Origin: Christensenella sp. UBA1224
GTDB taxonomy: Bacteria > Bacillota > Clostridia > Christensenellales > Aristaeellaceae
DNA: 38,758 bases
Assembly (NCBI GenBank): GCA_002309235.1
Contig: DBXA01000185.1
Span: 6,418-45,175 of the forward strand
Reading direction: 5' to 3'
The notes under the pieces were generated by a model. That model worked only from the letters and a program-made list of their open reading frames with translations. It made no database searches and was not told where the DNA came from. Made by a program: the position numbers and the translations under genes. Shown piece by piece: positions 580 through 18,942 of the stretch. Each line of letters starts with the position of its first letter. The first letter of the stretch is position 1.

Positions 580-652
580 TCACAGGCGAGGGGCCCGGCG
601 GTCGTTCTTTCGGGAATACTGCTGTTTTTTGAACAGAAAAAAAGGCAGTCAT

Positions 653-3412: not shown

Positions 3413-3439
3413 TTACACCTTCACGTTGGAATTTTACAC
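3413..3439 (+). promoter_or_regulatory. Candidate AraC operator: TTACAC hexamers 21 bp apart; the proximal one lies inside the 12-mer GGAATTTTACAC
   Basis: TTACAC at 3413-3418 and 3434-3439. The 12-mer GGAATTTTACAC (3428-3439) recurs exactly at 20923-20934, upstream of the paralogous importer operon. Confidence 0.4.
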
Positions 3440-3468
3440 TTTTCAATCTCTAAACATTAGGGTAATAT
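3440..3468 (+). promoter_or_regulatory. Candidate weak (activator-dependent) promoter of importer operon 1
   Basis: TTTTCA (3440-3445), 17 nt spacer, TAATAT (3463-3468). The -35 directly abuts the candidate operator and lies about 80 nt upstream of the ATG at 3549. Sequence match only. Confidence 0.3.
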
Positions 3469-3548
3469 GTTCATATCATAAACATAACATACAGCAAACG
3501 TGTTGTCAGCCCTATGCGATCTTTCATCAATCAAATGAAGGGAGGGGG

Positions 3549-4523
3549 ATGAAAATCATGGCAGTGAAAAGAGCCGAAGCCCGCACTGGCAGGGTTATAC
3601 ACAGGAAATCCATCTGGATGAAGGCTGCCCAGCGCTGGCAGCTGTACCTTTTCCTTTTGATCCCCGTTGTCTACCTGATCATATTCTGCTACTGGCCGAT
3701 GGCTGGTGTTCAGATCGCATTCCGGAAGTATAAGATCCGTTTGGGGATCTGGGGCAGCCAGTGGGTCGGCTGGTATCAGTTTGAGAAGTTCTTTTCCTCC
3801 TATTACTTTGGCCGTGTGGTTGGGAACACGCTGCGCCTTTCACTTTACAGCTTGATCGTCGGTTTTCCTCTGCCGGTCGTATTCGCCCTGCAGCTTAATG
3901 CTATGCGCGCTGCGAGGGGAAGAAAGCTTGTACAGACTGTAACATATATGCCGCATTTTATTTCGACTGTTGTCATGGTGGGCATCATCAACCAGATGCT
4001 CAATCCTACGTTCGGTCTATTTGGGAAGTTTTACCGCATGATCAACGGGATGGGGTCAACTCCTCCCAACTTATTGCTCAGTTCCGGCGCTTTCCCGCAT
4101 ATTTACGTACTTTCCGGCATTTGGCAGGGACTTGGATGGAGTACCATCATTTATACGGCGGCGCTTTCCGCGGTGGATCCATCGCTGCATGAGGCGGCTA
4201 CAATTGACGGCGCTACGAGGTTTCAGCGCATATTGCACGTTGATTTTCCCACGATCGTGCCTACCGTGTCCATTACGCTGATACTGCGTTTCGGCTCGAT
4301 CATGGGCATTGGCTTTGATAAAACGTATCTTCTTCAGAATAATGCGAATCTCGTTACGAGTGAAGTAATTGCGACCTTTGTTTATAAGCAGGCGTTTGAT
4401 TCCAGCAATATGGATTATTCATACGCTTCAGCTATCGGCCTGTTCAATTCGGTCATCGGTTTGTTCATGCTGGCCCTTATGAACCAGATCTCCCGCAAGG
4501 TCAGCGAGAGCAGCCTGTGGTAA
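3549..4523 (+). CDS. Carbohydrate ABC transporter permease (LplB/YteP-like), locus 1
   Basis: The ORF track gives 3327..4523. I trimmed it to ATG 3549 (MKIMAVKRAEA), which is preceded by GGAGGGGG. Multiple TM segments, and EAATIDGATRFQRILHVDFPTI is the EAA loop of binding-protein-dependent permeases. Confidence 0.85.
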   Translation: MKIMAVKRAEARTGRVIHRKSIWMKAAQRWQLYLFLLIPVVYLIIFCYWPMAGVQIAFRKYKIRLGIWGSQWVGWYQFEKFFSSYYFGRVVGNTLRLSLYSLIVGFPLPVVFALQLNAMRAARGRKLVQTVTYMPHFISTVVMVGIINQMLNPTFGLFGKFYRMINGMGSTPPNLLLSSGAFPHIYVLSGIWQGLGWSTIIYTAALSAVDPSLHEAATIDGATRFQRILHVDFPTIVPTVSITLILRFGSIMGIGFDKTYLLQNNANLVTSEVIATFVYKQAFDSSNMDYSYASAIGLFNSVIGLFMLALMNQISRKVSESSLW

Positions 4524-4536
4524 AGGAGGCGCAGAA

Positions 4537-5481
4537 ATGGTTACCCAAACGAAAGCGAATATGAAGCGCCTCTTTGGCAAAGGGCAGCTGCAGGCAACGG
4601 ATATCTATCTGACAAGATCGGACAGGATATTCCACGTCATTAATAATATCATCGTTTCGCTCTTGTTTCTTATCGTGCTTTTGCCGCTTATAAATGTACT
4701 GGCGAGCTCTTTTTCCTCGGCCTCTGCCGTTAATTCGGGCAAAGTGCTGCTTTGGCCGGTAGACTTTTCTGTTATAGGCTACGAAAAGGTGTTCGTATAT
4801 CCAGGCGTGTGGCGCAGCTATGGAAATACGGTGTTTTATACCGTTGCCGGCACCGCTATCAATGTCATCGTTACGCTGCTCGCGGCGTATCCTCTTTCAC
4901 GGCGGGATCTGCCGTTCAAAGGCTTCTTTATGTTCCTGTTCACCTTTACGATGATGTTTGGAGGCGGCATGATCCCAACCTATCTGGTCATGAAACAGAT
5001 AGGCGTCATCAATACCGTATGGGCGATGCTCCTGCCCGGCGCGCTTAGCGTATACAATATGATCATAGCGCGTACCTTTATGCAGAATATACCGATGGAT
5101 CTGTTCGAAGCGGCTCATTTGGATGGCTGCAGTGATGCTAGGTATTTTACCATGATCGCGCTGCCGCTTTCCGGTACCATGATATCCGTTCTCACGCTGT
5201 ACTATGCAGTCGGGCATTGGAATGCCTATTTCAATGCGTTCTTGTACTTGAACAACAGGGATTTGATGCCTTTGCAGATCATCCTGCGTGAGGTATTGCT
5301 GAGCACACAGATCAGCGCGGATGCCATTGTGGATGGCGATACGGCTGCAGCTCTTGCCGGTATGAGCGATCTTTTGAAATACTCGCTCATCGTGGTGGCA
5401 AGCGCGCCGATCCTGTGCCTGTATCCTTTCCTGCAGAAGTATTTTGTCAAGGGGGTCATGATCGGCTCCCTGAAGGGCTGA
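4537..5481 (+). CDS. Carbohydrate ABC transporter permease (LplC-like), locus 1
   Basis: 314 aa, AAGGAGG RBS, TM-rich, EAA loop EAAHLDGCSDARYFTMIALPLS. Confidence 0.85.
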   Translation: MVTQTKANMKRLFGKGQLQATDIYLTRSDRIFHVINNIIVSLLFLIVLLPLINVLASSFSSASAVNSGKVLLWPVDFSVIGYEKVFVYPGVWRSYGNTVFYTVAGTAINVIVTLLAAYPLSRRDLPFKGFFMFLFTFTMMFGGGMIPTYLVMKQIGVINTVWAMLLPGALSVYNMIIARTFMQNIPMDLFEAAHLDGCSDARYFTMIALPLSGTMISVLTLYYAVGHWNAYFNAFLYLNNRDLMPLQIILREVLLSTQISADAIVDGDTAAALAGMSDLLKYSLIVVASAPILCLYPFLQKYFVKGVMIGSLKG

Positions 5482-5546
5482 TACCTGTTTTACTATGAAT
5501 TTACCGGCAAGATCCGGTAAAAAATATATGATTTGGAGGGAATCCT

Positions 5547-7133
5547 ATGAAGAAGTTCCTGGCGCTCCTGATCATGGCCGCTTTGGTGCTGCCTATGATC
5601 CCCTGGAGTACACCCGCACAGGCGGAAGATGTACCGACTTTTGTGGTTACGCTTCCGACGAACACCCTGGTGACGGATTATGAAGACAACCGATTCACTA
5701 AATGGGTAGAAGAGGAATATGGCTGCGACATCGTATTCAATTTCCTGCCGGCTTCCGATTCACTGCAGAAGCTGACTGTTATGGTAGCAGGTGAAGAGGA
5801 TCTGGGAGACCTGCTTTACAGCGGCTTGAATAAGGCTACTATCCTGCAGTTTGCTGACGCGGGTGCACTGTACCCCCTGAATGAGTTCATCGACAAATAT
5901 GACACCAACCTCGAAGCCTTCTCCGCAGAGATAGGCGAAGACCTGGTAGCAGCTGTCACTACTGCTGACGGGGATATCTGGGGCTATCCCACCTATTATC
6001 CCGAGACCAACAACATGACCAAGTATCGCGCCTGGATCAACACCGTGTGGCTCGACAACCTGGGCCTCTCGATGCCTACCACCACGGATGAGCTCTATGA
6101 CGTGCTGGTTGCTTTCAGGGATCAGGATGCCAACGGCAACGGCGATCCGAACGATGAGATCCCGATGCTCGGCAGCACCAGCTGGTCTGCCAATCCCTGC
6201 GTGTTCCTTACCAATGCTTACGTGTACTGGGATGATGTGGAAGATCTGATCATCGAGGATGGAAAGATCGATGCCGCGTTCACACAGGAAGAGTATAAGG
6301 AAGCCCTGAAGTACATGAACAAGCTGGTTGCTGAAGGCTTGCTCTCCGCCGATACCTTCTCCATCACCGAAGGCCAGTACAGGGAATACCTGAGCACCGA
6401 GACGCCGACTGTCGGCATCAGCTTCTATACGCATCTTGGCTTTGTCGGCCCGACCGATGACAACAAGAATGAGTATCAGTATCTGCCTTACCTGATCGGC
6501 GCGGATGGAAAACAGCGCGTATCCTATCAGCCCTACGATACCTCCGCCATGCAGATCTGGTTTGTTCCCACCACGGCGAAGGATCCGGATGCTTCCTTCC
6601 AGTTCCTCGATTGGCTGTGGAAGGACGATTGGGCCTATATCCATTCCCGCTTCGGCTTTGAAGGCGAGGATTATGAAGCCGTTACCGATCCGGATACGCT
6701 TGCGCTCCTCAAGTCCAACCATGATTTTGCGATCCTGGAGCATGATGTAGGCTGGGGCGAAGCATGCAACATGTCCTGGCAGATCAATATGGGCCGCTAT
6801 ACCGGCAGCTCCTACATGTGCCAGTGGAACGGCGATCCCAACTACTACTTCTATAAGAGGGTCGTTGCGGTCGATGATATGATGAGCAAGGTCCCGGGCC
6901 CGGGCGAGTATGTGCCGGCTCTGACCTATACCTCCGAAGAGACGGATGAGTACAACGAGCTGCGCAGCAACATCCGTACCTTCTGGCAGGAATACCGTAC
7001 CCGCTTTATCCTGGGAGACCTGGATATCGATTCCAACTGGGATTCGTATATCAGCACCCTCAACAACGAGATGAACCTGCCCCGTTTCCTCGAAATGGTG
7101 CAGACGGCTTACGACCGTACTTACGGCGGCTGA
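5547..7133 (+). CDS. Extracellular solute-binding protein (large LplA-type family-1 SBP), locus 1
   Basis: 528 aa. N-terminal signal-like MKKFLALLIMAALVLPMIPWSTPAQA/EDV. DANGNGDPNDEIPMLG and the overall length are typical of LplA-like oligosaccharide-binding proteins. GGAGGG RBS. Confidence 0.85.
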   Translation: MKKFLALLIMAALVLPMIPWSTPAQAEDVPTFVVTLPTNTLVTDYEDNRFTKWVEEEYGCDIVFNFLPASDSLQKLTVMVAGEEDLGDLLYSGLNKATILQFADAGALYPLNEFIDKYDTNLEAFSAEIGEDLVAAVTTADGDIWGYPTYYPETNNMTKYRAWINTVWLDNLGLSMPTTTDELYDVLVAFRDQDANGNGDPNDEIPMLGSTSWSANPCVFLTNAYVYWDDVEDLIIEDGKIDAAFTQEEYKEALKYMNKLVAEGLLSADTFSITEGQYREYLSTETPTVGISFYTHLGFVGPTDDNKNEYQYLPYLIGADGKQRVSYQPYDTSAMQIWFVPTTAKDPDASFQFLDWLWKDDWAYIHSRFGFEGEDYEAVTDPDTLALLKSNHDFAILEHDVGWGEACNMSWQINMGRYTGSSYMCQWNGDPNYYFYKRVVAVDDMMSKVPGPGEYVPALTYTSEETDEYNELRSNIRTFWQEYRTRFILGDLDIDSNWDSYISTLNNEMNLPRFLEMVQTAYDRTYGG

Positions 7134-7150
7134 TAATCACGGGACTATGG

Positions 7151-7179
7151 GGACGGAGGAGACCCTCCGTCCTCTTTTT
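7151..7179 (+). terminator. Intrinsic-terminator-like hairpin between the SBP gene and the GH5 array (probable partial terminator or transcript stabiliser)
   Basis: GGACGGAGG (7151-7159), loop AGAC, CCTCCGTCC (7164-7172), then TCTTTTT. Only about 33 nt remain before the next start and no promoter is visible, so read-through is implied. Confidence 0.6.
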
Positions 7180-7211
7180 CCGAAGGAAGGGGCAAGGAGG
7201 CCCTGTTTACT

Positions 7212-8306
7212 ATGAAACCTTTTGAAAAACTGCACAAGGGCATGGGCGTCGGCGGATGGATGACAAACTATAAACGCGTACGTTTCCTGCCGGAAGACAA
7301 AGCGTTCAACCTCAGTATTGGGGATAAGGAGCATTTCGATCGTTACCTGACCCGCTGGGATATGCAGAACATCCGCTCTATGGGAATGGATCACATACGT
7401 ATCCCGTTTGACCAGGTTGTCGTAGAGGAATACACAAAGCCTTACGCGTATCAGGAGGATATGCTGAAGCTTCTCGACCGCGCCATAGGTTGGGCGGTGG
7501 ATGAGGGCTTTGAGGTCATACTGAACCTGCACCATGCCATAGGCTGCTACTGTGACTTTGCGGAAGGCTCCAGTCTATTGGATGACGATCTTCTCAAGGA
7601 CCGCTTTGTTGCCCTGTGGTCTATGCTGGAAGACCGCTATCATGATCTGGATATCATTTTTGAGCCGCTCAATGAGGTCACTACCCAGGATGCAGAAGCA
7701 TGGAACAGACTTGCAGAGCGCTGCGTAAAGGCTATCCGGGAGAAAAATCCTACCCGCCGCATTATCATCGGTTCCGCATCCTGGAACAGCCCGGACAGAT
7801 TAGCTGAATTGAAGCTGTATGACGATGATTATATCGCCTATACGTTCCATTTTTATGGGCCGCATGCTTTCACTCACCAACGTACTACGGTCAATGCGAC
7901 ACAGTACGCTTATAATCGCGAGATCCCTTACCCGGGTGACAATTCATATTATAAAGATTACGCGAAATTTGCGGGCGGCAGCGGCGCGGAATTTGATGCC
8001 TATCCTATTGTTGGCCGTGAATACATCGAGCATGCTTTGCGCGGAGCGGCGCAATTCCGAAAAGAACATCCGGATAAAGTTCTGTGGTTTGGCGAATTCG
8101 GTACGATCCGCCATGCAAACATCATCTGGCGTGAGAATTGGATGCGTGATGTGATCCGTTTTGCCATCGAAAATGACATGCCCTACAGCGTGTGGAATTA
8201 CCTTTCGACGCCTTACGACTGCAACCGCTTCTCGCTTGTCACGGATGATGAGAGGCGTATAGTGAGCCCGGAGATGCTCAGGATCATACAGGGCCACGTG
8301 GACTGA
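7212..8306 (+). CDS. Glycoside hydrolase family 5, CelC-like, cytoplasmic (paralogue 1)
   Basis: 364 aa. GH5 landmarks: GVGGW, HIRIPF (Arg), LNLHHAIG (His), EPLNEV (acid/base Glu), FHFYGP (His/Tyr), FGEFG (nucleophile Glu), VWNY (Trp). Layout and motifs resemble my memory of Clostridium thermocellum endoglucanase CelC (LDMHHAPGY, FELLNEV, FHFYNP..THQ, CGEFG, VWNY). No signal peptide. Confidence 0.9.
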   Translation: MKPFEKLHKGMGVGGWMTNYKRVRFLPEDKAFNLSIGDKEHFDRYLTRWDMQNIRSMGMDHIRIPFDQVVVEEYTKPYAYQEDMLKLLDRAIGWAVDEGFEVILNLHHAIGCYCDFAEGSSLLDDDLLKDRFVALWSMLEDRYHDLDIIFEPLNEVTTQDAEAWNRLAERCVKAIREKNPTRRIIIGSASWNSPDRLAELKLYDDDYIAYTFHFYGPHAFTHQRTTVNATQYAYNREIPYPGDNSYYKDYAKFAGGSGAEFDAYPIVGREYIEHALRGAAQFRKEHPDKVLWFGEFGTIRHANIIWRENWMRDVIRFAIENDMPYSVWNYLSTPYDCNRFSLVTDDERRIVSPEMLRIIQGHVD

Positions 8307-8341
8307 TCTTTCTGAACGATCTGGTATAGGGAGTGCGAAGG

Positions 8342-9436
8342 ATGAGACCGTTTGAGCGCATGAAACGGGGAATGGGTATCGGGGGATGGATGTCGAACAT
8401 CAAACGCGTTGCTTTCCTGCCGAGAGAGACAGCGTTTGATTTTACTGCCGGCGACCTGGAGCACATTCAGACATTCATTGCAAAGCGCGATATTCAAAAT
8501 ATCCGCTCTATGGGCATGGATCACATTCGCATTCCCTTTGATCAGGTCGTGATTGAGGAAGCGGCTGTACCAGGCTCATACCGGGAAGAAGTCCTATGCT
8601 GTCTTGACCGCACCATTGATTGGTGTATGGCAGAAGGATTGGACGTGGTGATCAACCTGCACCGCGCACTGGGCAATTACGCGAATTATAAAAATGAACC
8701 GAATATACTCGGCGATGGCTTTCTCCAGGCGCGTTTCATCAGGCTGTGGGAGATGCTGGAGAACAGGTATCACGATCTGGATATCGTTTTTGAACTGCTC
8801 AATGAAGTATACCGCGATGATCCGGAAGCATGGAATGTGCTGGCGGAGCGATGTGTTAAAGCGATCCGAGCAAAGAACCCTCTTCGCCGCATTATGATCG
8901 GCCCGGTAAAGTGGAACCGCCTTGACAGGCTCGGCGATCTCCGTTTGTATGATGACGATCATATCGGATATACGTTTCATTTTTATGAACCGCATACGTT
9001 TACCCATCAGCGTACTACTACAAGTGTCCTGCAGTATGCCTATAACCGCGAGATCCCGTATCCGGGAGACAGCTCGTATTATAGGGATTTTGCTCTTTTC
9101 TGCGGTGAGGATCCTTCAGGCTATGATGCCTGGCCTGCTGTCGGGAGGGATTATATCGAAAATGCGCTGCACAAGGCGGCAGTATTCAAGAAAGCCCATC
9201 CGGACAGGTTCCTTTGGCTGGGAGAATTCGGCACGATCCGCCATGCGCCGCTCAAATGCAGGGAGGCCTGGATGCGCGATGTCATTCGCTTCGCTGTCCG
9301 ATACGATATACCTTACAGTGTATGGAATTACCTTTCGACGCCTTATGATTGCAACAAGTTTTCGCTGGTTACGGATGACGAAAGGCGCATCGTAAGCCGC
9401 GAAATGCTCAGGATCATACAGGGTATAGTGGATTGA
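8342..9436 (+). CDS. Glycoside hydrolase family 5, CelC-like, cytoplasmic (paralogue 2)
   Basis: The ORF track starts at GTG 8333. I prefer ATG 8342 (MRPFERMKRG), 8 nt after TAGGGAG, which gives 364 aa like its siblings. Motifs: HIRIPF, INLHRALG, FELLNEV, FHFYEP, LGEFG, VWNY. Confidence 0.9.
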   Translation: MRPFERMKRGMGIGGWMSNIKRVAFLPRETAFDFTAGDLEHIQTFIAKRDIQNIRSMGMDHIRIPFDQVVIEEAAVPGSYREEVLCCLDRTIDWCMAEGLDVVINLHRALGNYANYKNEPNILGDGFLQARFIRLWEMLENRYHDLDIVFELLNEVYRDDPEAWNVLAERCVKAIRAKNPLRRIMIGPVKWNRLDRLGDLRLYDDDHIGYTFHFYEPHTFTHQRTTTSVLQYAYNREIPYPGDSSYYRDFALFCGEDPSGYDAWPAVGRDYIENALHKAAVFKKAHPDRFLWLGEFGTIRHAPLKCREAWMRDVIRFAVRYDIPYSVWNYLSTPYDCNKFSLVTDDERRIVSREMLRIIQGIVD

Positions 9437-9457
9437 CAGGGGAAGGGGGACAGGAAT

Positions 9458-10552
9458 GTGAAACCTTTTGAAAAACTGCATCGCGGTATGGGCGTAGGCG
9501 GATGGATGACAAACTATAAGCGCGTGCGCTTTCTTCCGGAAGAAAAAGCGTTCAACCTGTCGATCGGGGATAAAGAACATTTTGATCGTTACCTGACCCG
9601 CTGGGACATGCAGAATATCCGTTCCATGGGCATGGACCATATCCGTATCCCTTTTGACCAGGTAGTTGTGGAGGAATATAATAAGCCGTTTGCCTATCGG
9701 GAAGACATGCTGAAACTCCTGGACCGCGCCATTTGCTGGGCTGTCGATGAAGGTTTTGAGGTCATACTCAACCTGTGCAAAACCATCGGCTGCTATTGCG
9801 ATTTCGCGGAAAGGTCTGATCTCCTGGAAGATGATCTCCTCAAGGATCGCGTTGTAGCCATGTGGTCCATGCTGGAAGATCGCTACCATGATCAGGACAT
9901 CATTTTTGAGCTGCTTAACGAAGTGACTACGCAGGATGCAGCGGCCTGGAACATCCTTGCGGAACGCTGCGTAAAAACGATCCGGGAAAAGAATCCTGCC
10001 CGCCGTATCATCATAGGTTCCGCTTACTGGAACAGCCCGGACCGCCTTGCTGATCTGCAGTTGTACGATGACGACTGTATCGCCTACACGTTTCATTACT
10101 ACGGGCCGCATGCCTTCACACACCAGCGCACGACAATCGATGCAGTGCAATACGCCTATAACCGTGAGATCCCCTATCCGGGAGACAATTCGTATTACAA
10201 GGACTATGCCCGCTTCGCAGGAAGCGATCCCGCTGAATTTGATGCTTATCCCATTGTCGGCCGTTCGTATATTGAGCATGGACTGCGAGGCGCGGCACAG
10301 TTCCGTAAAGATCATCCGGGCAAGGTCCTGTGGTTCGGTGAATTCGGCACCATCCGCCATGCGAACATCGTCTGGCGTGAGAACTGGATGCGCGATGTGA
10401 TCCGCTTTGCCATCGAAAACGATATACCATACAGCGTGTGGAACTACCTTTCGACGCCTTATGACTGCAATCGCTTCTCACTGGTCACGGATGACGAAAG
10501 GCGCATCGTGAGTCCGGAGATGCTGCGCATCATACAGGGCAATACAGATTGA
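9458..10552 (+). CDS. Glycoside hydrolase family 5, CelC-like, cytoplasmic (paralogue 3; conserved His-His replaced by Cys-Lys)
   Basis: GTG start after GGGGGACAGGA, 364 aa. About 40 substitutions against paralogue 1 by my hand count. Keeps HIRIPF, FELLNEV, FHYYGP, FGEFG and VWNY, but reads LNLCKTIG (TGC AAA at 9776-9781) where the others have LNLHHAIG or NLHRALG. Confidence 0.85.
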   Translation: MKPFEKLHRGMGVGGWMTNYKRVRFLPEEKAFNLSIGDKEHFDRYLTRWDMQNIRSMGMDHIRIPFDQVVVEEYNKPFAYREDMLKLLDRAICWAVDEGFEVILNLCKTIGCYCDFAERSDLLEDDLLKDRVVAMWSMLEDRYHDQDIIFELLNEVTTQDAAAWNILAERCVKTIREKNPARRIIIGSAYWNSPDRLADLQLYDDDCIAYTFHYYGPHAFTHQRTTIDAVQYAYNREIPYPGDNSYYKDYARFAGSDPAEFDAYPIVGRSYIEHGLRGAAQFRKDHPGKVLWFGEFGTIRHANIVWRENWMRDVIRFAIENDIPYSVWNYLSTPYDCNRFSLVTDDERRIVSPEMLRIIQGNTD

Positions 10553-10593
10553 TATTGAGCTGCGTGAACGAAAAATGAAACGGAGGGGATGGC

Positions 10594-11691
10594 ATGAGCC
10601 CGTTTGAGAAAATACACAGAGGCATGGGTATTGCCGGGTGGATGACAAATTACAAGCGCATGCGTTTTGTGAAAGAGGAAGGGACGTTTGATCTTACTGT
10701 CGGTGACAGGGAACATATCGAACGCTACCTGACCCGCTGGGATATCCAGAACATCCGCTCCATGGGCATGGATCACATCCGTGTGCCGTTTGACCATGTT
10801 GTGCTTGAGGAATACGATAAGCCGTTCCGTTACCGTGAGGACATGTTTGCGCTGCTTGACCGCATGATCGGCTGGTGTCTGGACGAAGGATTAGAGGTAG
10901 TCCTCAATATGCATCATGCGATCGGCTGTTACTGTGATTTCAATGTGGGCGTGAAGCTGCTTGACAATGACCTGATGATGGAGCGGTTCCTCGCGATCTG
11001 GGATAAGATCGAAGACAGGTATCATGATCTGGATATCATATTCGAGCCTCTCAATGAGATCACGTCGCAGGAGGCTGAGCCCTGGAACGATCTTATGGCA
11101 AGGTATGTACAGATGATCCGGGCAAAGAACCCGACGCGCCGCATCATCATAGGTTCCCCGGGCATAAACCGCGTTTACCGGCTGAAGGATCTAAAGCTTT
11201 ATGAGGATGATGCCATAGGCTATACCTATCATTTCTATTTCCCGTATGCGTTCACGCACCAAAGGACAACGATCAACTCTGTAGAGTATGCCTACAACAG
11301 GGAAGTATCCTATCCCGGTCCTGTCGAAGTCTATAAGGATTACGCGGAGTATTCCAAAGGCGGTGATGGATCATCTTTTGAAGGGTTTGATACCGTCGGC
11401 AGGGAATACGTGGAACGCATTCTGCAGAGTGCAGCGGATTTCCGCGCAGCGCATCCGGAAAAGTTTCTCTGGATGGGTGAATTCGGTACTATCCGTCATG
11501 CGCCGCTCAGATGCCGGGAAAACTGGATGCGGGATGTGATCCGTTTTGCTATTGAGCACGGTATCGCATACAGCGTATGGAATTATCTTTCTACACCCTA
11601 TGACTGCAATAAGTTCTCTCTGGTGGATGACGATGATCGCCGTATCGTGAGCAGGGAGATGCTGAGGATCATACAGGGTCATGTGGACTGA
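10594..11691 (+). CDS. Glycoside hydrolase family 5, CelC-like, cytoplasmic (paralogue 4)
   Basis: 365 aa, GGAGGGG RBS. Motifs: HIRVPF, LNMHHAIG, EPLNEI, YHFYFP, MGEFG, VWNY. Confidence 0.9.
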   Translation: MSPFEKIHRGMGIAGWMTNYKRMRFVKEEGTFDLTVGDREHIERYLTRWDIQNIRSMGMDHIRVPFDHVVLEEYDKPFRYREDMFALLDRMIGWCLDEGLEVVLNMHHAIGCYCDFNVGVKLLDNDLMMERFLAIWDKIEDRYHDLDIIFEPLNEITSQEAEPWNDLMARYVQMIRAKNPTRRIIIGSPGINRVYRLKDLKLYEDDAIGYTYHFYFPYAFTHQRTTINSVEYAYNREVSYPGPVEVYKDYAEYSKGGDGSSFEGFDTVGREYVERILQSAADFRAAHPEKFLWMGEFGTIRHAPLRCRENWMRDVIRFAIEHGIAYSVWNYLSTPYDCNKFSLVDDDDRRIVSREMLRIIQGHVD

Positions 11692-11715
11692 GACGGAAAA
11701 GAGGGGGACAGGATC

Positions 11716-12810
11716 GTGAAGCCGTTTGAAAATATGCATCGGGGTATGGGGATAGGCGGCTGGCTGACAAACTTCAAACGCGTCGGGTTCATCCAGAAAG
11801 AAAAGGCGCTTGATCTGACGGTCGGAGACAAAGAACATTTTGAAAAGTATATCACACGCTGGGACATTCAGAACATCCGCTCTATGGGCATGGATCATAT
11901 CCGCATCCCATTTGACCAGGTCGTGATCGAGGAAGTTGGAAAACCAGGTGCTTATCGTGAGGAAACGCTCCGGCATCTTGACAGGGGTATCGAATGGAGC
12001 CTGGCTGAAGGTCTGGACGTGGTGATCAACCTGCACCGGGCGCTTGGCTGTTACAGTGAATTCGGTGATGGAGCGATGCTCCTGAATGACAGATCGATAC
12101 AGGATCGCCTTATCCGTATGTGGGAGATGCTGGAGGATCGCTATCATGGCCTGGATATTGCTTTTGAGCTTCTCAATGAGGTGTATTCAGATGAACCTGA
12201 GGCATGGAACAAACTCGCTGAACGGATCATAAAGGCACTGCGTGTGAAAAATCCAAAGCGCCGTGTCATCATAGGTCCTGTCTGCTGGAACAGTCCGGAC
12301 CGCCTTGCTCAGCTGCGCCTGTTCGATGATGTTTATGTGGGATATACTTTCCATTTCTATGAACCGCATACTTTCACGCATCAACGGACGACCATCAATC
12401 AGCAGCAGTATGCCTACAACCGTGAGATCCCGTATCCGGGAGACAGTTCATACTATAAGGATTTCGCTGTTTTTTGCGGAGGTGATCCGGAGGTATACAA
12501 AAAGTGGCCTGTTGTCGGACGGGAATTTGTGGAATACTCGATGCGCGGCGCGGCTGCGTTCAAGGCAGCTCATCCGGATAAATTCCTTTGGCTTGGTGAA
12601 TTCGGCAGCATACGACATGCGCGGCTTGCCTGGCGGGAGGCATGGATGCGGGATGTGATACGCTTTGCGATAGAGCATGATATCGCCTACAGTGCTTGGA
12701 ATTACCTTTCAACACCGTATGACTGCAATAAGTTTTCCTTGGTCACGGATGATGAAAGGCGTATTGTGAGCCGGGAAATGCTGCGGATCATACAGGGCAT
12801 AGCGGACTGA
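11716..12810 (+). CDS. Glycoside hydrolase family 5, CelC-like, cytoplasmic (paralogue 5)
   Basis: GTG start after GGGGGACAGGA, 364 aa. Motifs: HIRIPF, INLHRALG, FELLNEV, FHFYEP, LGEFG, AWNY. Confidence 0.9.
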   Translation: MKPFENMHRGMGIGGWLTNFKRVGFIQKEKALDLTVGDKEHFEKYITRWDIQNIRSMGMDHIRIPFDQVVIEEVGKPGAYREETLRHLDRGIEWSLAEGLDVVINLHRALGCYSEFGDGAMLLNDRSIQDRLIRMWEMLEDRYHGLDIAFELLNEVYSDEPEAWNKLAERIIKALRVKNPKRRVIIGPVCWNSPDRLAQLRLFDDVYVGYTFHFYEPHTFTHQRTTINQQQYAYNREIPYPGDSSYYKDFAVFCGGDPEVYKKWPVVGREFVEYSMRGAAAFKAAHPDKFLWLGEFGSIRHARLAWREAWMRDVIRFAIEHDIAYSAWNYLSTPYDCNKFSLVTDDERRIVSREMLRIIQGIAD

Positions 12811-12831
12811 CAGGTGAATGGAGGCGTGAAT

Positions 12832-13926
12832 GTGAAACCTTTTGAAAAGCTGCACCGGGGCATGGGTGTGGGTGGTTGGATGACGAACTACAAGCGCGTG
12901 CGGTTTCTGCCGCAGGATATGGCATACAACATCACTGTAGGTGACCGCGAGCATTTCGAGCGCTTTCTGACCGAGTGGGACATCCGGAATATACGCTCCA
13001 TGGGCATGGATCATATCCGCATTCCATTCGACCAGGTCGTGATCGAGGAATATGAGAAGCCGTTTCAATACCGTGAGGATATGCTCCTGCTGCTTGACAG
13101 AATGATCGGTTGGGCTCTGGATGCAGGATTTGAGGTCATTCTGAACATGCATCACGCAATAGGCTGTTATTGCGATTTCGCGGAAGCAGCTACTCTTACG
13201 GAGGATGAGCAGCTGAAACAGCGTTTCCTTCGGGCATGGGAGATGCTGGAAGATCGCTACCACGATCTGGATATCATCTTTGAGCCGCTCAATGAAGTGA
13301 CGACACCGGATGCAGAGGCCTGGAACATGCTGGCGGAGCGCTGCGTAAAAGCGATACGGGCGAAGAACCCGACACGCCGTATCATCATAGGCTCCACACA
13401 GATGAACCGTGTGGACCGCCTGCCGGAATTGAAACTGTATGACGATGAATATATCGCATATACCTTCCATTTTTATGGCCCGATGGTATTCACTCATCAG
13501 AGGAAAACGACCGGTGCTATGCTGTACGCTTACAACCGGGAAGTACCGTATCCCGGAGATAATTCGTACTATAAAGATTATGCTGTTTTTTCCGGGGCGG
13601 ATCCAGCAGAATTTGATCCTTATCCGATCGTCGGACGGGAATATGTGGAGCATTTGCTGCGATACGCGGTGGAATTCAAACAGGCGCATCCGGAGAAGGT
13701 CCTGTGGTTTGGAGAATTCGGTACGATTCGTCATGCCAATATCATCTGGCGCGAAAATTGGATGAGGGATGTGATTCGCTTCTCCATACAGCATGATATT
13801 CCTTACAGTGTGTGGAATTACCTTTCTACGCCTTACGACTGTAATAAGTTTTCGCTTGTTACGGATGATGAACGCCGCATCGTCAGCCCTGAGATGCTCA
13901 GGATCATACAGGGTGATGTGGATTGA
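12832..13926 (+). CDS. Glycoside hydrolase family 5, CelC-like, cytoplasmic (paralogue 6)
   Basis: The ORF track starts at 12814. I prefer GTG 12832 (VKPFEKLHRG), 7 nt after GGAGG, which gives 364 aa. Motifs: HIRIPF, LNMHHAIG, EPLNEV, FHFYGP, FGEFG, VWNY. Confidence 0.9.
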   Translation: MKPFEKLHRGMGVGGWMTNYKRVRFLPQDMAYNITVGDREHFERFLTEWDIRNIRSMGMDHIRIPFDQVVIEEYEKPFQYREDMLLLLDRMIGWALDAGFEVILNMHHAIGCYCDFAEAATLTEDEQLKQRFLRAWEMLEDRYHDLDIIFEPLNEVTTPDAEAWNMLAERCVKAIRAKNPTRRIIIGSTQMNRVDRLPELKLYDDEYIAYTFHFYGPMVFTHQRKTTGAMLYAYNREVPYPGDNSYYKDYAVFSGADPAEFDPYPIVGREYVEHLLRYAVEFKQAHPEKVLWFGEFGTIRHANIIWRENWMRDVIRFSIQHDIPYSVWNYLSTPYDCNKFSLVTDDERRIVSPEMLRIIQGDVD

Positions 13927-13946
13927 GATATAAGGAGATGGATAAC

Positions 13947-14954
13947 ATGGACAAACGCAGCTTTCCCATTGTAGGAATGATACTTGGCGACCATGCAGGG
14001 ATCGGGCCGGAGATCGCGGCTATGACACTTTCACAGCGCAGCGATATGAACTTCGCGCCTGTCCTGGCGGGCAGTCTGAAGCTTTTCCGGCGTGCTATGG
14101 CCCTGGTACCCGGCAGCGCGGAGAAGCTTGATATCGTGGATATCACACGAGATCCGTCTGTTGAAAAACAGCCAGGCAAGGTGTATTTCTATGATATACC
14201 GACTCGCGGAGATATTCCCTTCAGCCAGATCAATGCGGCCAGCGGACACCTGATATTTGACAGTATGCAGGCGATCATCCAAATGGAAAAAAAGGGACTG
14301 ATCGATGGCTTCGTCATGGGACCTATCACGAAACAAGCGCTTCATGCAGCGGGGCTCAACTATTCTTCAGAGTTTGAGATTTACAAGGAAGCGTACAATA
14401 CGCCGGTATGCCGTGCAGTTATCAAGGCAGGTGATATCTTCCGCTGCACTGTTGTAGGACATGTACGGTTTACTGAGATCGTTTCACACCTGACGCCGGA
14501 TGGCATTGTCGATACCGCGCATGCACTGCTCGGTGTTATAAGACGTTTCCATAAAGAGGGGAATATCCGTATAGCTGTAGCGGCGCTGAATCCGCATGCA
14601 GGGGAGGATGGACTGTTTGGAGATGAAGAGTCCACCATCATCCAGCCTGCGATCGATCGCTTGTTGGCGGAGGGAGTGGATGTCATTGGACCGAGCCCTG
14701 CGGATACCGTATATCGCCGGGCACAGACGGGAAAGGTGAATGGTATCGTTTACCTGTATCATGACCAGGGCAATATTGCCATGAAAGCCGCTTCGTTCGG
14801 CGATGGCGTCCTCATTTATACGGGTGTTCCGGCGCGTATCGTATCTGTGGGACATGGCGGGGCATTCGGTTCCGCAGGCAAGGGTACAGCCAGTCCGGCC
14901 AATCTCACGGCCAGCCTTGATACGCTGTTGGAAATGATCAGGGAGGAGATCTGA
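13947..14954 (+). CDS. PdxA-family NAD-dependent hydroxyacid(-phosphate) dehydrogenase (PdxA2-like), copy 1
   Basis: The ORF track starts at TTG 13923. ATG 13947 lies 9 nt after AAGGAG. GDHAGIGPEI, LNPHAGE and [11 protein letters not shown] match the conserved PdxA-family blocks (GxxxGIGPE, NPHAGE, YHDQG). Confidence 0.8.
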   Translation: MDKRSFPIVGMILGDHAGIGPEIAAMTLSQRSDMNFAPVLAGSLKLFRRAMALVPGSAEKLDIVDITRDPSVEKQPGKVYFYDIPTRGDIPFSQINAASGHLIFDSMQAIIQMEKKGLIDGFVMGPITKQALHAAGLNYSSEFEIYKEAYNTPVCRAVIKAGDIFRCTVVGHVRFTEIVSHLTPDGIVDTAHALLGVIRRFHKEGNIRIAVAALNPHAGEDGLFGDEESTIIQPAIDRLLAEGVDVIGPSPADTVYRRAQTGKVNGIVYLYHDQGNIAMKAASFGDGVLIYTGVPARIVSVGHGGAFGSAGKGTASPANLTASLDTLLEMIREEI

Positions 14955-14956: not shown

Positions 14957-15847
14957 ATGTATAAGCTTTCCGTAAAGCATGATCCTTATCTGAACATCCA
15001 TGTGGATTCCTATATCCTTAGGACCGATACGCACTGTGTATTCATTGACAGCGGCTTATATGGTCAGCACGAGCTTGTAGCTGAGGCTATGCAGGGCCGC
15101 GAAACGACGCTTCTGTGCACGCATGGTCACTGGGATCATATCGGCATGCACAAGACCATACAGGATATGGGGGGCCGTGTCCGGGCGAATATAGGTGACA
15201 AACCTTATTTTGAGGATCATGAATGGCACTGGAAAGAACTGTTCGGACAGTTTATGAATGACTGTACCATACCGCCTGCCAGGCGGGAGACCTATGTCGC
15301 GCGCGTCGGAAGCCCAATGGTGCCGGAATACGGGCTTGAAGATGGAGATATCCTTGACATAGGTGAAATGCGATTTCAGGTCATTGCCATACCCGGTCAC
15401 TCAAGGGGAAGCCTTGCTTTTCTCGAAATACATTCCGGAGCCCTGTTCACCGGGGATGGCTTGATCGGCAACGGTTTCTTTACCGGAACACCGCAGTATA
15501 TGAATGTGCCGGACTACTTGGCTTCAATGGAGAAACTTGCTCGTGTTTCATGCGAGACGGTTTATTCTGATCACGATCCCGTTATGCCCGGAAGCGGTCT
15601 TGCGGAGAAGGCACTTGCCGGGCGCGACTGCTGCCTGCGCATTGACAGAGTTGTGCGTGATCATGTGAAGCATCATGAAAAGGATGAAGACCTGTCACTC
15701 AATGAGATGATAGAAGCGGTCCATGCGGAAGAAGGCAGGGGTGTAGGAGCGGGCATGTGCGTGACGGTACTCGCTCACCTTGAAAATATCGAGGATCCGC
15801 CAAAATGTGTGGTCAAATGCCTGAACAGGTATATTCACGGGATTTGA
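14957..15847 (+). CDS. MBL-fold metallo-hydrolase
   Basis: 296 aa. THGHWDH (the HxHxDH zinc motif), then IPGHSRGS and a later DH, in the order typical of the metallo-beta-lactamase fold. Confidence 0.8.
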   Translation: MYKLSVKHDPYLNIHVDSYILRTDTHCVFIDSGLYGQHELVAEAMQGRETTLLCTHGHWDHIGMHKTIQDMGGRVRANIGDKPYFEDHEWHWKELFGQFMNDCTIPPARRETYVARVGSPMVPEYGLEDGDILDIGEMRFQVIAIPGHSRGSLAFLEIHSGALFTGDGLIGNGFFTGTPQYMNVPDYLASMEKLARVSCETVYSDHDPVMPGSGLAEKALAGRDCCLRIDRVVRDHVKHHEKDEDLSLNEMIEAVHAEEGRGVGAGMCVTVLAHLENIEDPPKCVVKCLNRYIHGI

Positions 15848-15861
15848 CGGAGGCGTTTGAT

Positions 15862-16626
15862 ATGTTTGATTTTACGGATAAAGTTGTTGTCGTGACAGGT
15901 GCTTCCGGTATCGGGATCGGACGTGAGATCGCCGGGCGCTTTTATCAGGCCGGTGCACACATTGCGATCTGCTCTCGTTCACAGGAGCGTATAGATGCGG
16001 CTGCGAGGGAAATAGCTGGGGAAAAAGCAGCAGATATCCTTGCAATGCAGGCAGATATGTCGTCCGTTGAGGAAATACGTGCCTTCATAGACACTGCGGC
16101 AGAAAGGTTTGGCAGGATCGATATCCTTATCAATAATGCGGGTGTGCAGTTTCCAAAACCATCGCTTGAAGTGACGGAGGAGGACTGGCAGCGTACGGAG
16201 GATACGAATCTGCGCGGGTATTTCTTCGCGGCACAGCGAGCGGCTATGTATATGATGCGATCCGGCGGAGGCGCTATTGTCAACATAGGCTCGGTCAATG
16301 CAGTAACAGTTGTACCCGGACAGGCTGTTTACGCGGCAACAAAGGCCGGTATTTCACAGATGACAAAGAGCCTTGCGCGGGAATGGGGCCGCAGCGGCAT
16401 ACGTGTGAACTGCGTAGGACCGGGTTCGATCCCCACACTGATAAATGCAGAGATATACAAGGATCCTGCGGTCGACCGCGCTATGTGCGAAAAGATACCC
16501 ATGGGCAGGAGGGGAACGACGCGCGAGATCGCGGATGCGACTCTTTACCTGGCAAGTGATTACGCGAGCTACATTACAGGACAGACATTGTTTGTGGATG
16601 GCGGGCTTACGCTGGTCCATGGATAA
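15862..16626 (+). CDS. SDR family oxidoreductase, copy 1
   Basis: Trimmed from 15805 to ATG 15862 (MFDFTDKVVVVTGASGIGIG), 5 nt after GGAGG. TGxxxGIG cofactor motif, NNAG, and YAATK (YxxxK). Confidence 0.85.
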   Translation: MFDFTDKVVVVTGASGIGIGREIAGRFYQAGAHIAICSRSQERIDAAAREIAGEKAADILAMQADMSSVEEIRAFIDTAAERFGRIDILINNAGVQFPKPSLEVTEEDWQRTEDTNLRGYFFAAQRAAMYMMRSGGGAIVNIGSVNAVTVVPGQAVYAATKAGISQMTKSLAREWGRSGIRVNCVGPGSIPTLINAEIYKDPAVDRAMCEKIPMGRRGTTREIADATLYLASDYASYITGQTLFVDGGLTLVHG

Positions 16627-16643: not shown

Positions 16644-17522
16644 ATGAAGATCGGTTTTATAGGACTTGGCATTATGGGAAAACCAATGGCATTGAATCTG
16701 ATCAAAGGCGGTCACGAGCTTTGTGTTTATGATGTTGTCAAGGAGCGAGTAGAGGAAGTTGCCTCTGCCGGTGCGAAAGCCGCATGTTCAATCGCAGAAG
16801 CTGTAAAGGATGCGGAGTTTGTCGTCACGATGCTCCCGAACTCCCCACACGTAAAGGAAGTCGTTTGCGGGGAAGGCGGTGTCCTGTCAGCGGCTAAACC
16901 GGGGACGATCCTGATCGACATGAGCTCTATCGCTCCGGCGGCTTCACAGGAAGTTGCAGCGAAATGTGCTGAAAAAGGCGTAAAGATGCTGGAAGCGCCT
17001 GTCAGCGGAGGCGAGCCGAAGGCGATCGATGGGACGGTTTCATTCATGTGCGGCGGTGAGGAAGAGGTGTTTGAAAAGTGCAGGCCGATCCTTGCCCTGA
17101 TGGGGAAGGATATCGTTCTGTGCGGGCCGAGCGGAGCAGGAAATACCGTAAAACTGGCAAACCAGATCATCGTTGCAGTCAATATCGCAGCTGTCGCAGA
17201 AGCTTTCATGCTGGCGCGCCAGGCGGGTGTCGAGCCACAGACTGTGTTTGAAGCGATACGCGGCGGCCTTGCGGGAAGCACTGTTCTGAACGCAAAGGGC
17301 TCTATGATGATCGCTCAAAATGTGAATCCTGGTTTTAAGATCGATCTGCACATCAAGGATCTGAACAATGTAGTAGATACTGCGCACCGAAACGGTACGC
17401 CTATTCCCATGACGAGCGTCGTGATGGACATGCTCCAGAACCTGCACCTGCGCGGTATGGGTGGCTGCGATCACAGCGCCATCGCGAAGTATTATGAGTA
17501 TCTGACGGGTGTTAAGATCTGA
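16644..17522 (+). CDS. NAD(P)-dependent beta-hydroxyacid dehydrogenase (2-hydroxy-3-oxopropionate reductase / 3-hydroxyisobutyrate DH family), copy 1
   Basis: 292 aa. MKIGFIGLGIMGKPMALNL Rossmann start, LEAPVSGGEPKA, KLANQIIVA and DLHIKDL are family hallmarks (GarR/GlxR/YgbJ-type). AAGGAGG RBS. Confidence 0.85.
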   Translation: MKIGFIGLGIMGKPMALNLIKGGHELCVYDVVKERVEEVASAGAKAACSIAEAVKDAEFVVTMLPNSPHVKEVVCGEGGVLSAAKPGTILIDMSSIAPAASQEVAAKCAEKGVKMLEAPVSGGEPKAIDGTVSFMCGGEEEVFEKCRPILALMGKDIVLCGPSGAGNTVKLANQIIVAVNIAAVAEAFMLARQAGVEPQTVFEAIRGGLAGSTVLNAKGSMMIAQNVNPGFKIDLHIKDLNNVVDTAHRNGTPIPMTSVVMDMLQNLHLRGMGGCDHSAIAKYYEYLTGVKI

Positions 17523-17579
17523 TCTTTTCTATTATTGGGATTCGTTCCATGTGCTTTTTCAAAAGAACAAATAAAAGGA

Positions 17580-17612
17580 ATAGCCTACTTCACAGCAGGC
17601 TATTCTTTTTTC
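17580..17612. terminator. Bidirectional intrinsic terminator between convergent genes
   Basis: AATAGCCT (17580-17587), 10-nt loop, AGGCTATT (17598-17605), then CTTTTTT. An A-run (AAATAAAAGG) on the left serves the minus strand. Confidence 0.7.
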
Positions 17613-17635
17613 CAAGAAAATATGGTTTGAGGTTG

Positions 17636-18928
17636 TCAGTGATTAGGAAGGACCTTCCAGATCTTCATGGATCCGGGCGACAGCCAGTTTCCCGCATAAT
17701 GCGGTTCATGCCACCATCCCGCCTTTATTCCTTCTCCGGCAGGTGTAGTTCCCATGTGATATTCTGCTTCAGGGACTTCCTCCCATTGCAATCCGCATAC
17801 ATCGATCACATTAAGCCCCTTGCGGAAATACAGATAGCACTGATTCGCTTCGGTTTGCGAATTGTTTGTGATCGAGTAATAGAGAGTGCCGTCCTGATGC
17901 CGGAATCTGGAGACGATCGCTTCATGTGCGGCTTCGACGTAGATGAGGTTTTCGTCTTCTTCTTCACAGAACAAGGGGTAGTTTGCAAATGATTTCTTTG
18001 CATGCCATACCTTTTCGAGTTTGAGCTTTGGTATGAGACTGCCATATGTCTTGTGGAAGGTGCGGTTGATGCGGGCAACCTTTTCGAATTGGCTGGAGCG
18101 TTCATAATGTTCGTCGATGGGGGCAAGCCCATAACGGCCTGTCATACGGCGATTATAGAAGAAATAGCCCATTATCCCATCTGCACCATGTGCAATGGAA
18201 GTGTACAGCTGCCAGCGAAAATCGTTTTCTGTGACTTCGCGATAGCGGAAATGCCCTGTCATGAGAACTGTGTTGAGGAAAGGTACACCTGTTCGCAGGG
18301 ACATATCACGGAATACCTCAAGGTTATGGAAGTATTCTGTAAGCCCCTCTCCATCCGGGAGCAGTTGTGTATAGCAGTCATATCCGGTAAGGCCAAGATG
18401 CGCATCGTTAACGATATCAGTCAAGACATCTTGATACTTCTTGCCGCCCTGACCGAGGCGTTCAGGTCCCCAACCGAAGCTCCAGGGGGCAAAGTTGACA
18501 AACATCTTCTTTTCTGGAATCACTTCCGAAACGATTTGAGAAACCTTAATGGTGTTTTTTACTTCGATCAATCCCCTCATGCAGCCCGGCTCATCCAATA
18601 TGAAGATGGAGTCTACAGCAGGATGGAGTCCAAAATCATTGCGAAGCTGCAATGCAGCACTTCGTACTCTGTCTTCATCAAAGCGATCTGGGAACCAGGC
18701 TTTCTTGAGCCGCAGATCGTAAAACATTACATGGATATCCCTGCGAGCGGCTTCATCAAGGAGTTCAAACATAGCTTCCCTGCTTCCGGGAAATTCGGAA
18801 TACATTGGTGACATAGCCAATGTCATTCCAGCTTCGTCCCATTCTTGTACAATCTCCCGCGGTCGTTTCCAAATCTCAGGCAGTTCAAATTCACAAAGAT
18901 TCCAGAATCCGATTGGGTACTTTTCCAT
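17636..18928 (-). CDS. Hypothetical cytoplasmic protein, possibly a TIM-barrel glycoside-hydrolase-like enzyme
   Basis: The ORF track starts at TTG 18934. ATG 18928 (MEKYPIGFWN) lies 7 nt after GGAGG. No signal peptide and no motif I can name. The alternating pattern and genomic context suggest a glycosidase-like barrel. It starts 14 nt after the AraC-2 stop, so it is probably co-transcribed. Confidence 0.6.
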   Translation of the reverse strand: MEKYPIGFWNLCEFELPEIWKRPREIVQEWDEAGMTLAMSPMYSEFPGSREAMFELLDEAARRDIHVMFYDLRLKKAWFPDRFDEDRVRSAALQLRNDFGLHPAVDSIFILDEPGCMRGLIEVKNTIKVSQIVSEVIPEKKMFVNFAPWSFGWGPERLGQGGKKYQDVLTDIVNDAHLGLTGYDCYTQLLPDGEGLTEYFHNLEVFRDMSLRTGVPFLNTVLMTGHFRYREVTENDFRWQLYTSIAHGADGIMGYFFYNRRMTGRYGLAPIDEHYERSSQFEKVARINRTFHKTYGSLIPKLKLEKVWHAKKSFANYPLFCEEEDENLIYVEAAHEAIVSRFRHQDGTLYYSITNNSQTEANQCYLYFRKGLNVIDVCGLQWEEVPEAEYHMGTTPAGEGIKAGWWHEPHYAGNWLSPGSMKIWKVLPNH

Positions 18929-18942
18929 AATCAAGCCTCCGT

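Follow-up and report, generated by a model that had tools for sequence, protein, structure and literature searches.

A 38,758-nt stretch of contig DBXA01000185.1 from Christensenella sp. UBA1224, referred to here as the window and the source of all coordinates, carries six consecutive glycoside hydrolase family 5 (GH5) genes on its + strand between positions 7212 and 13926. Together they are a genuine, old and selectively maintained six-gene expansion of a cytoplasmic CelC-like GH5 within an importer-linked operon. Copy 1 occupies 7212-8306 (ATG start, 364 aa), copy 2 8342-9436 (ATG, 364 aa, with an alternative in-frame GTG at 8333), copy 3 9458-10552 (GTG, 364 aa), copy 4 10594-11691 (ATG, 365 aa), copy 5 11716-12810 (GTG, 364 aa) and copy 6 12832-13926 (GTG, 364 aa, in an open reading frame (ORF) that opens at 12814), all starts having been picked to fit the family N-terminus M-K/R/S-P-F-E. 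The spacers measure 35, 21, 41, 24 and 21 nt in order from copy 1 to copy 6, and each gene has its own Shine-Dalgarno-like site (GGAGG/GGGAG/GGGGGA-type) 6-12 nt upstream. The ORF listing thereby agrees with an initial annotation of this DNA, which had described six head-to-tail genes of 364-365 aa lying 21-41 nt apart, each with a ribosome-binding site, and tblastn finds exactly six GH5 copies in the window. The public gene calls for copies 3 and 5 (354 aa) begin at Met11 and miss the conserved GTG-initiated N-terminus. None of the six copies receives an NCBIfam name, and Rfam detects no RNA family anywhere in the window.

All six copies match Pfam PF00150 (GH5, clan GH-A) with E values from 1e-25 to 4e-33 and scores of 90-116 bits against a cut-off of 23.5 bits, copy 1 reaching 3.7e-33. 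The best PDB sequence match of copy 1 is C. thermocellum CelC (1CEC, E 4e-59), and the next PDB family follows at 2e-22. Structure modelling covered copy 1: its AlphaFold2 model, built from a 60-sequence alignment (pLDDT 93.5, pTM 0.92), is a (beta/alpha)8 barrel, and among the top 50 listed Foldseek matches, all of them GH5 structures, CelC comes first with TM scores of 0.83/0.90 at 33-34% identity. The motifs HIR[IV]PF, LNE, [FY]H[FY]Y, GEFG and WNY occur in six of six copies, as do R63, N154-E155, H213, Y215, E295 and W328, and the acid/base N154-E155 and nucleophile E295 align with CelC N139-E140 and E280. The beta3 histidine (His107; CelC H90) is kept in copies 1, 2, 4, 5 and 6, giving these five all eight canonical GH5 residues.

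No copy has a signal peptide or membrane anchor by hydropathy, no 15-residue window within the first 50 residues rising above a Kyte-Doolittle mean of 0.6, and Pfam finds each to be a single-domain protein without a carbohydrate-binding module or dockerin. All six are thus CelC-like retaining GH5 (beta/alpha)8 proteins without export signals. GH5_37, the CelC subfamily, is described as bacterial, intracellular and devoid of signal peptides, with endoglucanase, licheninase and cellodextrinase activities (PMC3526467), so the missing signal peptide is a known subfamily trait rather than a peculiarity of the array. The initial annotation was right to place every copy in GH5, to liken them to CelC and to find no hydrophobic N-terminal segment in any of them; its statement that every copy keeps the family motifs is correct for those it listed, although copy 3 has lost the canonical His107, which is Cys there.

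The initial annotation was also right that the array is no assembly artefact, because a second metagenome assembly (JAEEGL01), 98.3% identical in nucleotide sequence over window positions 228-9907, shows the same junctions. In that assembly, contig JAEEGL015158960.1 (L042) spans the gene for the upstream solute-binding protein, copies 1 and 2 and the first part of copy 3, whereas copies 5 and 6 lie with the PdxA-like gene that follows the array on contig JAEEGL014626537.1 (L043), the junctions on both being those of the window.

Age and relatives of the array

Pairwise identity among the six copies is 59-89% for the proteins and 64-80% for the DNA. Copies 1 and 3 share 88.7% protein identity, differing at 41 of 364 residues (about 40 had been counted by hand), with 80% DNA identity and a synonymous divergence (dS) of 1.77. 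By the Nei-Gojobori method dS is saturated, at 1.77 or above, in 15 of 15 pairs, and the ratio of nonsynonymous to synonymous divergence (dN/dS) lies at 0.04-0.15 in the pairs that allow an estimate. With saturation reaching even the closest pair and so low a dN/dS, the copies are both old and constrained. Third-codon identity stays at 0.41-0.54 over the full length of the gene, and no two copies share an exact DNA stretch longer than 25 nt; on these grounds we attribute the conservation to purifying selection on the protein.

That conservation is strongest at the C-terminus, where about 65 residues are very strongly conserved in all six copies. The near-invariant C-terminus is a family-wide trait that extends to single-copy organisms: in 91 distant homologues, 141 alignment columns reach at least 95% conservation, among them those of the C-terminal stretch WNYLSTPxDGNRFSLVDDD...R.I.S. 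Gene conversion was considered as its cause and rejected, given this family-wide motif, a third-codon identity of 0.52-0.54 at the C-terminus, saturated dS and exact matches of 25 nt at most.

Between the two strains, synonymous and nonsynonymous codon differences number 15/0 in copy 1, 3/1 in copy 2, 4/2 in copy 5, 10/3 in copy 6 and 3/4 in the first 150 codons of copy 3. Copy 1 is the slowest-evolving copy and the closest to single-copy relatives, and copy 4 is the most divergent. Acceleration of copies 2, 4 and 5 was hinted at by a near outgroup and vanished with a safe distant one (relative-rate p 0.055-0.31). In neighbour-joining (NJ) trees the clade of copies 2 and 5, the pairing of copy 4 with its orthologue P0020 and the grouping of copy 6 with its orthologues each receive 100% bootstrap support; a further sequence, P0028, is 96% identical to copy 2.

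The same slot holds one GH5 in three related lineages (L029-L032, L053 and L054), with proteins 56-82% identical to those of the window, which bears out the expectation that related loci would carry fewer copies. A metagenome-assembled genome (MAG), SIG363 (L008), has two tandem copies beside an importer, a GH51-type arabinofuranosidase, a PdxA-like gene and an SDR gene. Contig ERZ1029114:k87_22952625 (L034) carries counterparts of copy 4 (4', 82%), copy 1 (1', 92%), copy 6 (6', 91%) and copy 5 (5', 79%), followed by PdxA, and L035 confirms the succession copy 6', copy 5', PdxA. Between L034 and the window dN/dS is 0.02-0.05 for 1', 5' and 6' (0.05 for copy 5, 0.02 for copy 6) with saturated dS, and the partial copy 4' gives a dN of 0.13 against copy 4, where saturation of dS precludes a ratio. 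Measured against these orthologues, copies 4 and 5 have about twice the dN of copies 1 and 6.

Since another organism has its own orthologues of copies 1, 4, 5 and 6, no fewer than four of the paralogue lineages can be judged to predate a speciation event. Together with the saturated dS and the low dN/dS, they substantiate the initial view that the copies are old and individually maintained. Copy number and order vary among relatives, with one, two, at least four and six copies on record. Since three related lineages have one GH5 in the slot and another has at least four in a different order, we read the six-gene array as a lineage-specific expansion. A GTDB genome scan and a metagenome scan, both run with narrow peptide patterns that returned few close relatives, produced no further large arrays. 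The closest MAGs with a recorded origin come from water-buffalo rumen.

Other close single-copy relatives lie in unrelated contexts, one beside GH127 and BNR genes and an IS200-type transposase, others adjoining EamA or MFS transporters and small AraC regulators. In the first of these settings, seen in water-buffalo-rumen-type MAGs (L001-L003, 7700-8917), a copy 1 relative lies by a GH127 beta-L-arabinofuranosidase-like gene, a BNR_2 protein and the transposase; in MAG SIG363 (L008, 9033-10667) a copy 1 relative lies beside a GH51-type Alpha-L-AF_C protein. These arabinofuranosidase-type neighbours hint at arabinose-decorated plant glycans as the wider substrate context.

Beyond these relatives, the copies belong to a wide and highly conserved clade. 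A word-indexed search returned 945 relatives at E <= 1e-20, many of about 362 aa and 51-56% identity and some annotated as Clostridia, Firmicutes, Planctomycetia or Lentisphaerae. An exhaustive search of 50%-identity cluster representatives returned about eight full-length sequences at 42-50% identity before a drop to 30-39%, the range into which CelC falls (33-34%). The clade of the window may be a sister group of GH5_37 rather than a member. Literature searches on GH5_37, on tandem intracellular GH5 paralogues and on PdxA-family enzymes with glycoside hydrolases turned up no account of such an array or clade. Ten loci outside the near clade, representing five distinct lineages, have a single gene, except one with a partial second copy. 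This exception (L046, 795-2250) is a distant member of about 50% identity on a short contig, where the additional copy begins 217 nt further downstream; the lineage of the window is thus not alone in having this GH5 duplicated in tandem.

Regulator, importer and downstream module

The array follows an LplABC-type importer, as the initial annotation had proposed, with two permeases and a large solute-binding protein encoded upstream. Permease 1 (LplB-like; Pfam BPD_transp_1) spans 3327-4523 on the + strand; its true start is probably near 3559, which gives 321 aa, in keeping with a 321-aa gene call on a near-identical NCBI contig and with the non-genic look of the first 74 residues of the long ORF. 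Permease 2 (LplC-like; BPD_transp_1) lies at 4537-5481 (+), and the extracellular solute-binding protein of 528 aa (Pfam SBP_bac_1), with a hydrophobic, signal-like N-terminus, at 5547-7133 (+). The nearest solved relatives of the latter are Smon0123, AlgQ1/2 and FusA (E 3e-30 to 1e-25), all of which bind oligosaccharides. Pfam detects no ABC_tran ATPase gene in the window; CUT1 systems in Firmicutes usually share an MsmK-type ATPase encoded elsewhere.

Upstream and divergent is an AraC-family regulator of 634 aa (1309-3213, - strand) with Pfam HTH_18 and HTH_AraC matches at its C-terminus and hydrophobic windows near residues 13-38 and 273-303, which is probably a membrane-bound one-component sensor. 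A second AraC regulator lies at 18943-20853 (-). Both are about 635 aa long and have hydrophobic segments near residues 13-60 and 273-325 that flank a domain of about 230-250 residues, presumably extracellular, and both look like one-component membrane sensors instead of the usual pair of a kinase and an AraC response regulator.

Between the solute-binding protein gene and copy 1 lies a terminator-like hairpin (7149-7179, +) with an 11-bp G+C-rich stem and a T5 run; the RNA of 7134-7211 folds at -36.2 kcal/mol (z = -3.3). A hairpin without the T-run occupies the same position in a single-copy relative (L029). The element is probably a partial terminator or an mRNA stabiliser. The 32 nt between the hairpin and copy 1 contain no promoter-like site, and a search for internal promoters found such sites no more often than in shuffled sequence (19 found, 23 expected). 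No + strand terminator-like site occurs in any array spacer or between copy 6 and the PdxA-like gene. Most likely the array would be read by partial read-through past the hairpin, a common arrangement for solute-binding protein genes. The earlier proposal of one transcription unit is likely though unproven, given the strong hairpin that separates the solute-binding protein gene from copy 1.

Downstream of the array, a PdxA-family NAD-dependent dehydrogenase paralogue (13923-14954, +; Pfam PdxA, 4e-66) falls below every NCBIfam equivalog cut-off and has PdxA2 / D-threonate-4-phosphate dehydrogenase as its nearest PDB match. It is followed, here as in L029, L053 and L054, by a hydrolase of the metallo-beta-lactamase (MBL) fold (14957-15847, +; Pfam Lactamase_B), which might act as a lactonase. 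An SDR oxidoreductase (15805-16626, +; Pfam adh_short_C2) passes the NCBIfam cut-off for the 'glucose 1-dehydrogenase' subfamily (245 against 215 bits); translation probably begins some 60 nt after position 15805, since its relatives are 252-253 aa long. A 2-hydroxy-3-oxopropionate (tartronate semialdehyde) reductase-type enzyme (16644-17522, +; NCBIfam NF008592, 426.6 bits against a cut-off of 397) is probably the last product of the operon, which a hairpin found by the terminator scan after its gene (17578-17605) would end. There are no + strand terminator-like sites between the genes of this module.

The module of PdxA-like enzyme, MBL hydrolase, SDR and reductase accompanies GH5 in at least five lineages, and these conserved partners are not those of a cellodextrin locus. 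By Pfam and NCBIfam the locus has no GH1, GH3, GH94 or sugar kinase gene, which suggests oxidative handling of the released sugar and a substrate that may be no plain beta-glucan or ordinary cellodextrin.

The remainder of the window includes a second, paralogous catabolic locus (18943-36482) built on the same plan. After its AraC regulator with two membrane segments come two permeases and a 526-aa solute-binding protein, then a GH20-like 360-aa protein, a KDPG-aldolase-like protein, a 7-bladed lactonase, an M20 peptidase, HIBADH, a PdxA-like gene, an SDR, an Asp/Glu racemase and, at the end, an archaeal-type (type II) GAPDH, PGK, an Iso_dh protein and an S9 esterase. The permeases of the two loci share 60-64% identity, the solute-binding proteins 43%, the PdxA-like proteins 47% and the SDRs 63%, and the racemase and GAPDH of the second locus match genes in the single-GH5 locus of L029 at 85-88% identity. 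It is unusual for a bacterial operon to combine a type II GAPDH and a dedicated PGK with a neighbouring PdxA-like gene. On the same strand as the second AraC regulator and immediately downstream of it, a 432-aa ORF (17636-18934, -) of ordinary protein composition matches no Pfam family and no PDB sequence. Two + strand ORFs (17549-17992 and 18002-18811) were rejected as members of the first operon and are probably shadows of this - strand ORF.

Copy-specific departures and the division of labour

Copy 3 alone departs from the family at a canonical position. Its His107 is replaced by Cys within a triple change of HHA to CKT (NLHHA to NLCKT), at a position where 117 of 117 other family members, like CelC, have His, and the same CK motif occurs in copy 3 of the second strain (L042). 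In CpMan5B, mutation of the equivalent His reduced activity to <2% (PMC3835425). Copy 3 also changes at about 2.5 times the rate of its sister copy 1, with 18-21 unique changes against 7-10 (relative-rate tests, p 0.016-0.048). It keeps both catalytic Glu, and its dN/dS against copy 1 is 0.04. Because its dS to copy 1 (1.77) is below that between copy 1 and the L034 orthologue of copy 1 (2.68), and no orthologue of copy 3 was seen outside the species of the window among the relatives compared, copy 3 looks like a younger duplicate. It is possibly a catalytically impaired or re-specialised, faster-evolving enzyme; we infer that it is weakly active, re-specialised or on its way out. The initial annotation had expected all six copies to act in the cytoplasm. 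The location agrees with the lack of an export signal in any copy; the activity is doubtful for copy 3, because its invariant His is lost.

Over L042 positions 9232-9681 (window 9458-9907), copy 3 of the second strain also carries T18R, R22L, V23G and M59I. Of the residues affected, R22 does not vary in 117 family members and T18 is conserved to at least 95%; three of the four changes fall within 15 nt. These changes may reflect relaxed constraint or errors in a low-coverage contig.

Further departures, counted at sites at least 95% conserved in the 91 distant homologues, mark other copies: C114A and D115N in copy 2, C114S and D115E in copy 5, Q68H and W191I in copy 4, and W191M in copy 6. D115 aligns with CelC Q98, a position placed at the -2 subsite in the paper on CpMan5B (PMC3835425). 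To judge from these substitutions, diversification of specificity among the copies is plausible.

We hold with moderate confidence that the six GH5s have diverged in specificity and divide their labour on a heterogeneous pool of imported glycans. On this account the array would have arisen as an old tandem expansion, by gene birth and death, from a single cytoplasmic GH5 that stood between the solute-binding protein and PdxA-like genes in an ABC-importer catabolic operon of uncultured Clostridia. The membrane AraC sensor would switch the operon on, and the importer would supply a mixture of beta-linked oligosaccharides or small glycosides. Differing as they do at the otherwise family-invariant loop positions 68, 107-109, 114-115 and 191, the six enzymes would then split this mixture by linkage, length or decoration, and the released sugar would enter the oxidative module of SDR dehydrogenase, MBL hydrolase, PdxA-like enzyme and tartronate-semialdehyde reductase.

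Several observations weigh against this account. Paralogue-variable sites are not enriched in the beta-to-alpha loops or on the catalytic face (Fisher p = 1.0 and 0.83) in a crude test that defined loops from AlphaFold secondary structure rather than from 3-D coordinates; diversification focused on the active site was thus tested and not demonstrated. The hairpin at 7149-7179 could limit transcription into the array. Finally, monophyly of the array clade has just 34% NJ bootstrap support, too little to place its deep branching relative to the single-copy lineages or to tell expansion in situ from loss elsewhere.

A bolder alternative, tentative and in our estimation a good deal short of an even chance, is that the clade is no beta-glucanase family at all and has an uncharacterised GH5 specificity for an unusual or acidic glycoside or oligosaccharide, feeding an undescribed oxidative acid-sugar route. 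The sugar would then pass through the SDR dehydrogenase, an MBL lactonase and the PdxA-like enzyme to tartronate semialdehyde and glycerate, and the invariant basic residues K21, R22, K/H/R108, R300 and H301 would read the charge of the substrate. The six paralogues would in that event form a natural specificity series for glycan variants, with copy 3 as a His-less binder or regulator.

It is unlikely that the six copies simply do the same job and serve to raise enzyme level or robustness. The retention of the catalytic Glu pair and of most family-invariant residues in all six would suit redundancy of this kind, as would the finding that variable sites are not concentrated on the catalytic face. 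Such amplifications, however, are usually young and homogenised, whereas here dS is saturated and exchange tracts are absent. Four of the lineages were each retained through a speciation event, the 59-71% protein identity between lineages is higher than neutral drift under identical function would usually preserve in a compact genome, and each copy has its own departures at sites invariant in the 91 homologues.

An obligate hetero-oligomer, in which the paralogues form one complex and are for that reason retained jointly in one operon, is improbable, even though the genes are tightly co-located with short spacers and share their conserved C-terminal residues. The C-terminal motif is equally conserved in the 91 distant homologues; since it is family-wide and extends to single-copy organisms, it is no evidence for hetero-oligomers and marks a feature of the family fold or function rather than a paralogue interface. 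The ten loci outside the near clade have, L046 apart, a single gene, a copy number and order that vary among relatives are unlike a machine of fixed stoichiometry, and CelC is monomeric.

Slightly less probable again is the idea that several copies are non-hydrolytic pseudo-enzymes with binding or regulatory roles. The Cys in copy 3, its faster evolution and the alteration of its second-strain counterpart at invariant R22 and at T18 all lend themselves to it; these signs nevertheless apply to copy 3 only, the other five copies keep every canonical residue, and even copy 3 is constrained relative to copy 1 and retains both catalytic Glu. That the array is an assembly artefact, or a chimera of single-copy genes from several strains, is scarcely credible despite the metagenomic source and the short-read contig of the related strain that stops within copy 3, because the junctions 1/2/3 and 5/6/PdxA recur in an assembly differing at 1.7% of bases, at least four copies lie together on a single contig of another organism, the copies are too dissimilar (at most 80% nucleotide identity) for mis-joining, and G+C content at third codon positions (GC3) is uniform over the locus.

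The array would offer a compact natural experiment on the diversification of glycosidase specificity under an importer that supplies mixed substrates. Surviving tandem duplicates are more often described as recent and homogenised; here six cytoplasmic hydrolase paralogues have remained neighbours until their synonymous sites were saturated. The array also flags an uncharacterised, highly conserved GH5 clade, and the fixed partnership of this GH5 with a PdxA-like, lactonase-like and reductase module suggests a route, yet to be worked out, by which Clostridia of gut and rumen break down plant glycans. The six copies are ready sequence variants, one of them a natural His-to-Cys variant, for relating structure to function in GH5_37-like enzymes. 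No principle is overturned; as a case of enzyme-family expansion, the array should be of interest to specialists in carbohydrate-active enzymes and in enzyme evolution.

Relation to known systems

Among solved structures, CelC (Cel5C; PDB 1CEC/1CEN/1CEO), type member of CAZy GH5_37, comes nearest to copy 1 by both sequence and fold. It shares with the window proteins the eight canonical GH5 residues, a subdomain inserted between beta6 and alpha6 and the lack of a signal peptide. Its identity to copy 1 is nevertheless just 33-34%, and the window proteins form a separate, tight clade that crosses phyla, in which the invariant R300 and H301 correspond to A and I in CelC. K21 and R22, likewise invariant in the clade, lie in an N-terminal stretch that the CelC alignment does not cover. 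Judging from CelC residues 1-18, the window proteins probably have an N-terminal insertion of about 17 residues relative to CelC. The genetic settings differ as well, celC being a single gene in the celC-glyR3-licA operon rather than part of an array beside an ABC importer and a PdxA-like module.

The transport genes resemble LplABC-type (CUT1) importers in their two BPD_transp_1 permeases, a solute-binding protein of about 525 aa and the absence of an ATPase gene from the locus. The similarity of the window protein to AlgQ1/2, Smon0123 and FusA is distant, and its ligand cannot be read from it.

The single-copy loci (L029-L032, L053 and L054) share the order of two permeases, large solute-binding protein, GH5, PdxA-like gene, MBL hydrolase, SDR, racemase (present in L029, L053 and L054) and HIBADH-type reductase, differing in the single GH5 that stands where the window has six. 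L029-L032 also have the divergent AraC regulator upstream; L053 and L054 begin within the solute-binding protein gene. The single-copy loci continue with a racemase, type II GAPDH, PGK, a LarA-like gene and glycerate kinase; the window counterparts of the racemase, GAPDH and PGK sit in its second locus, and the window yielded neither a LarA-like nor a glycerate kinase gene. The contig L034, which is cut and holds at least four copies, departs from the window in having the order 4'-1'-6'-5' instead of 1-2-3-4-5-6 and no orthologue of copy 2 or 3 between its copies. It agrees with the window in carrying tandem GH5 paralogues, orthologous to copies 4, 1, 6 and 5, directly upstream of a PdxA-like gene.

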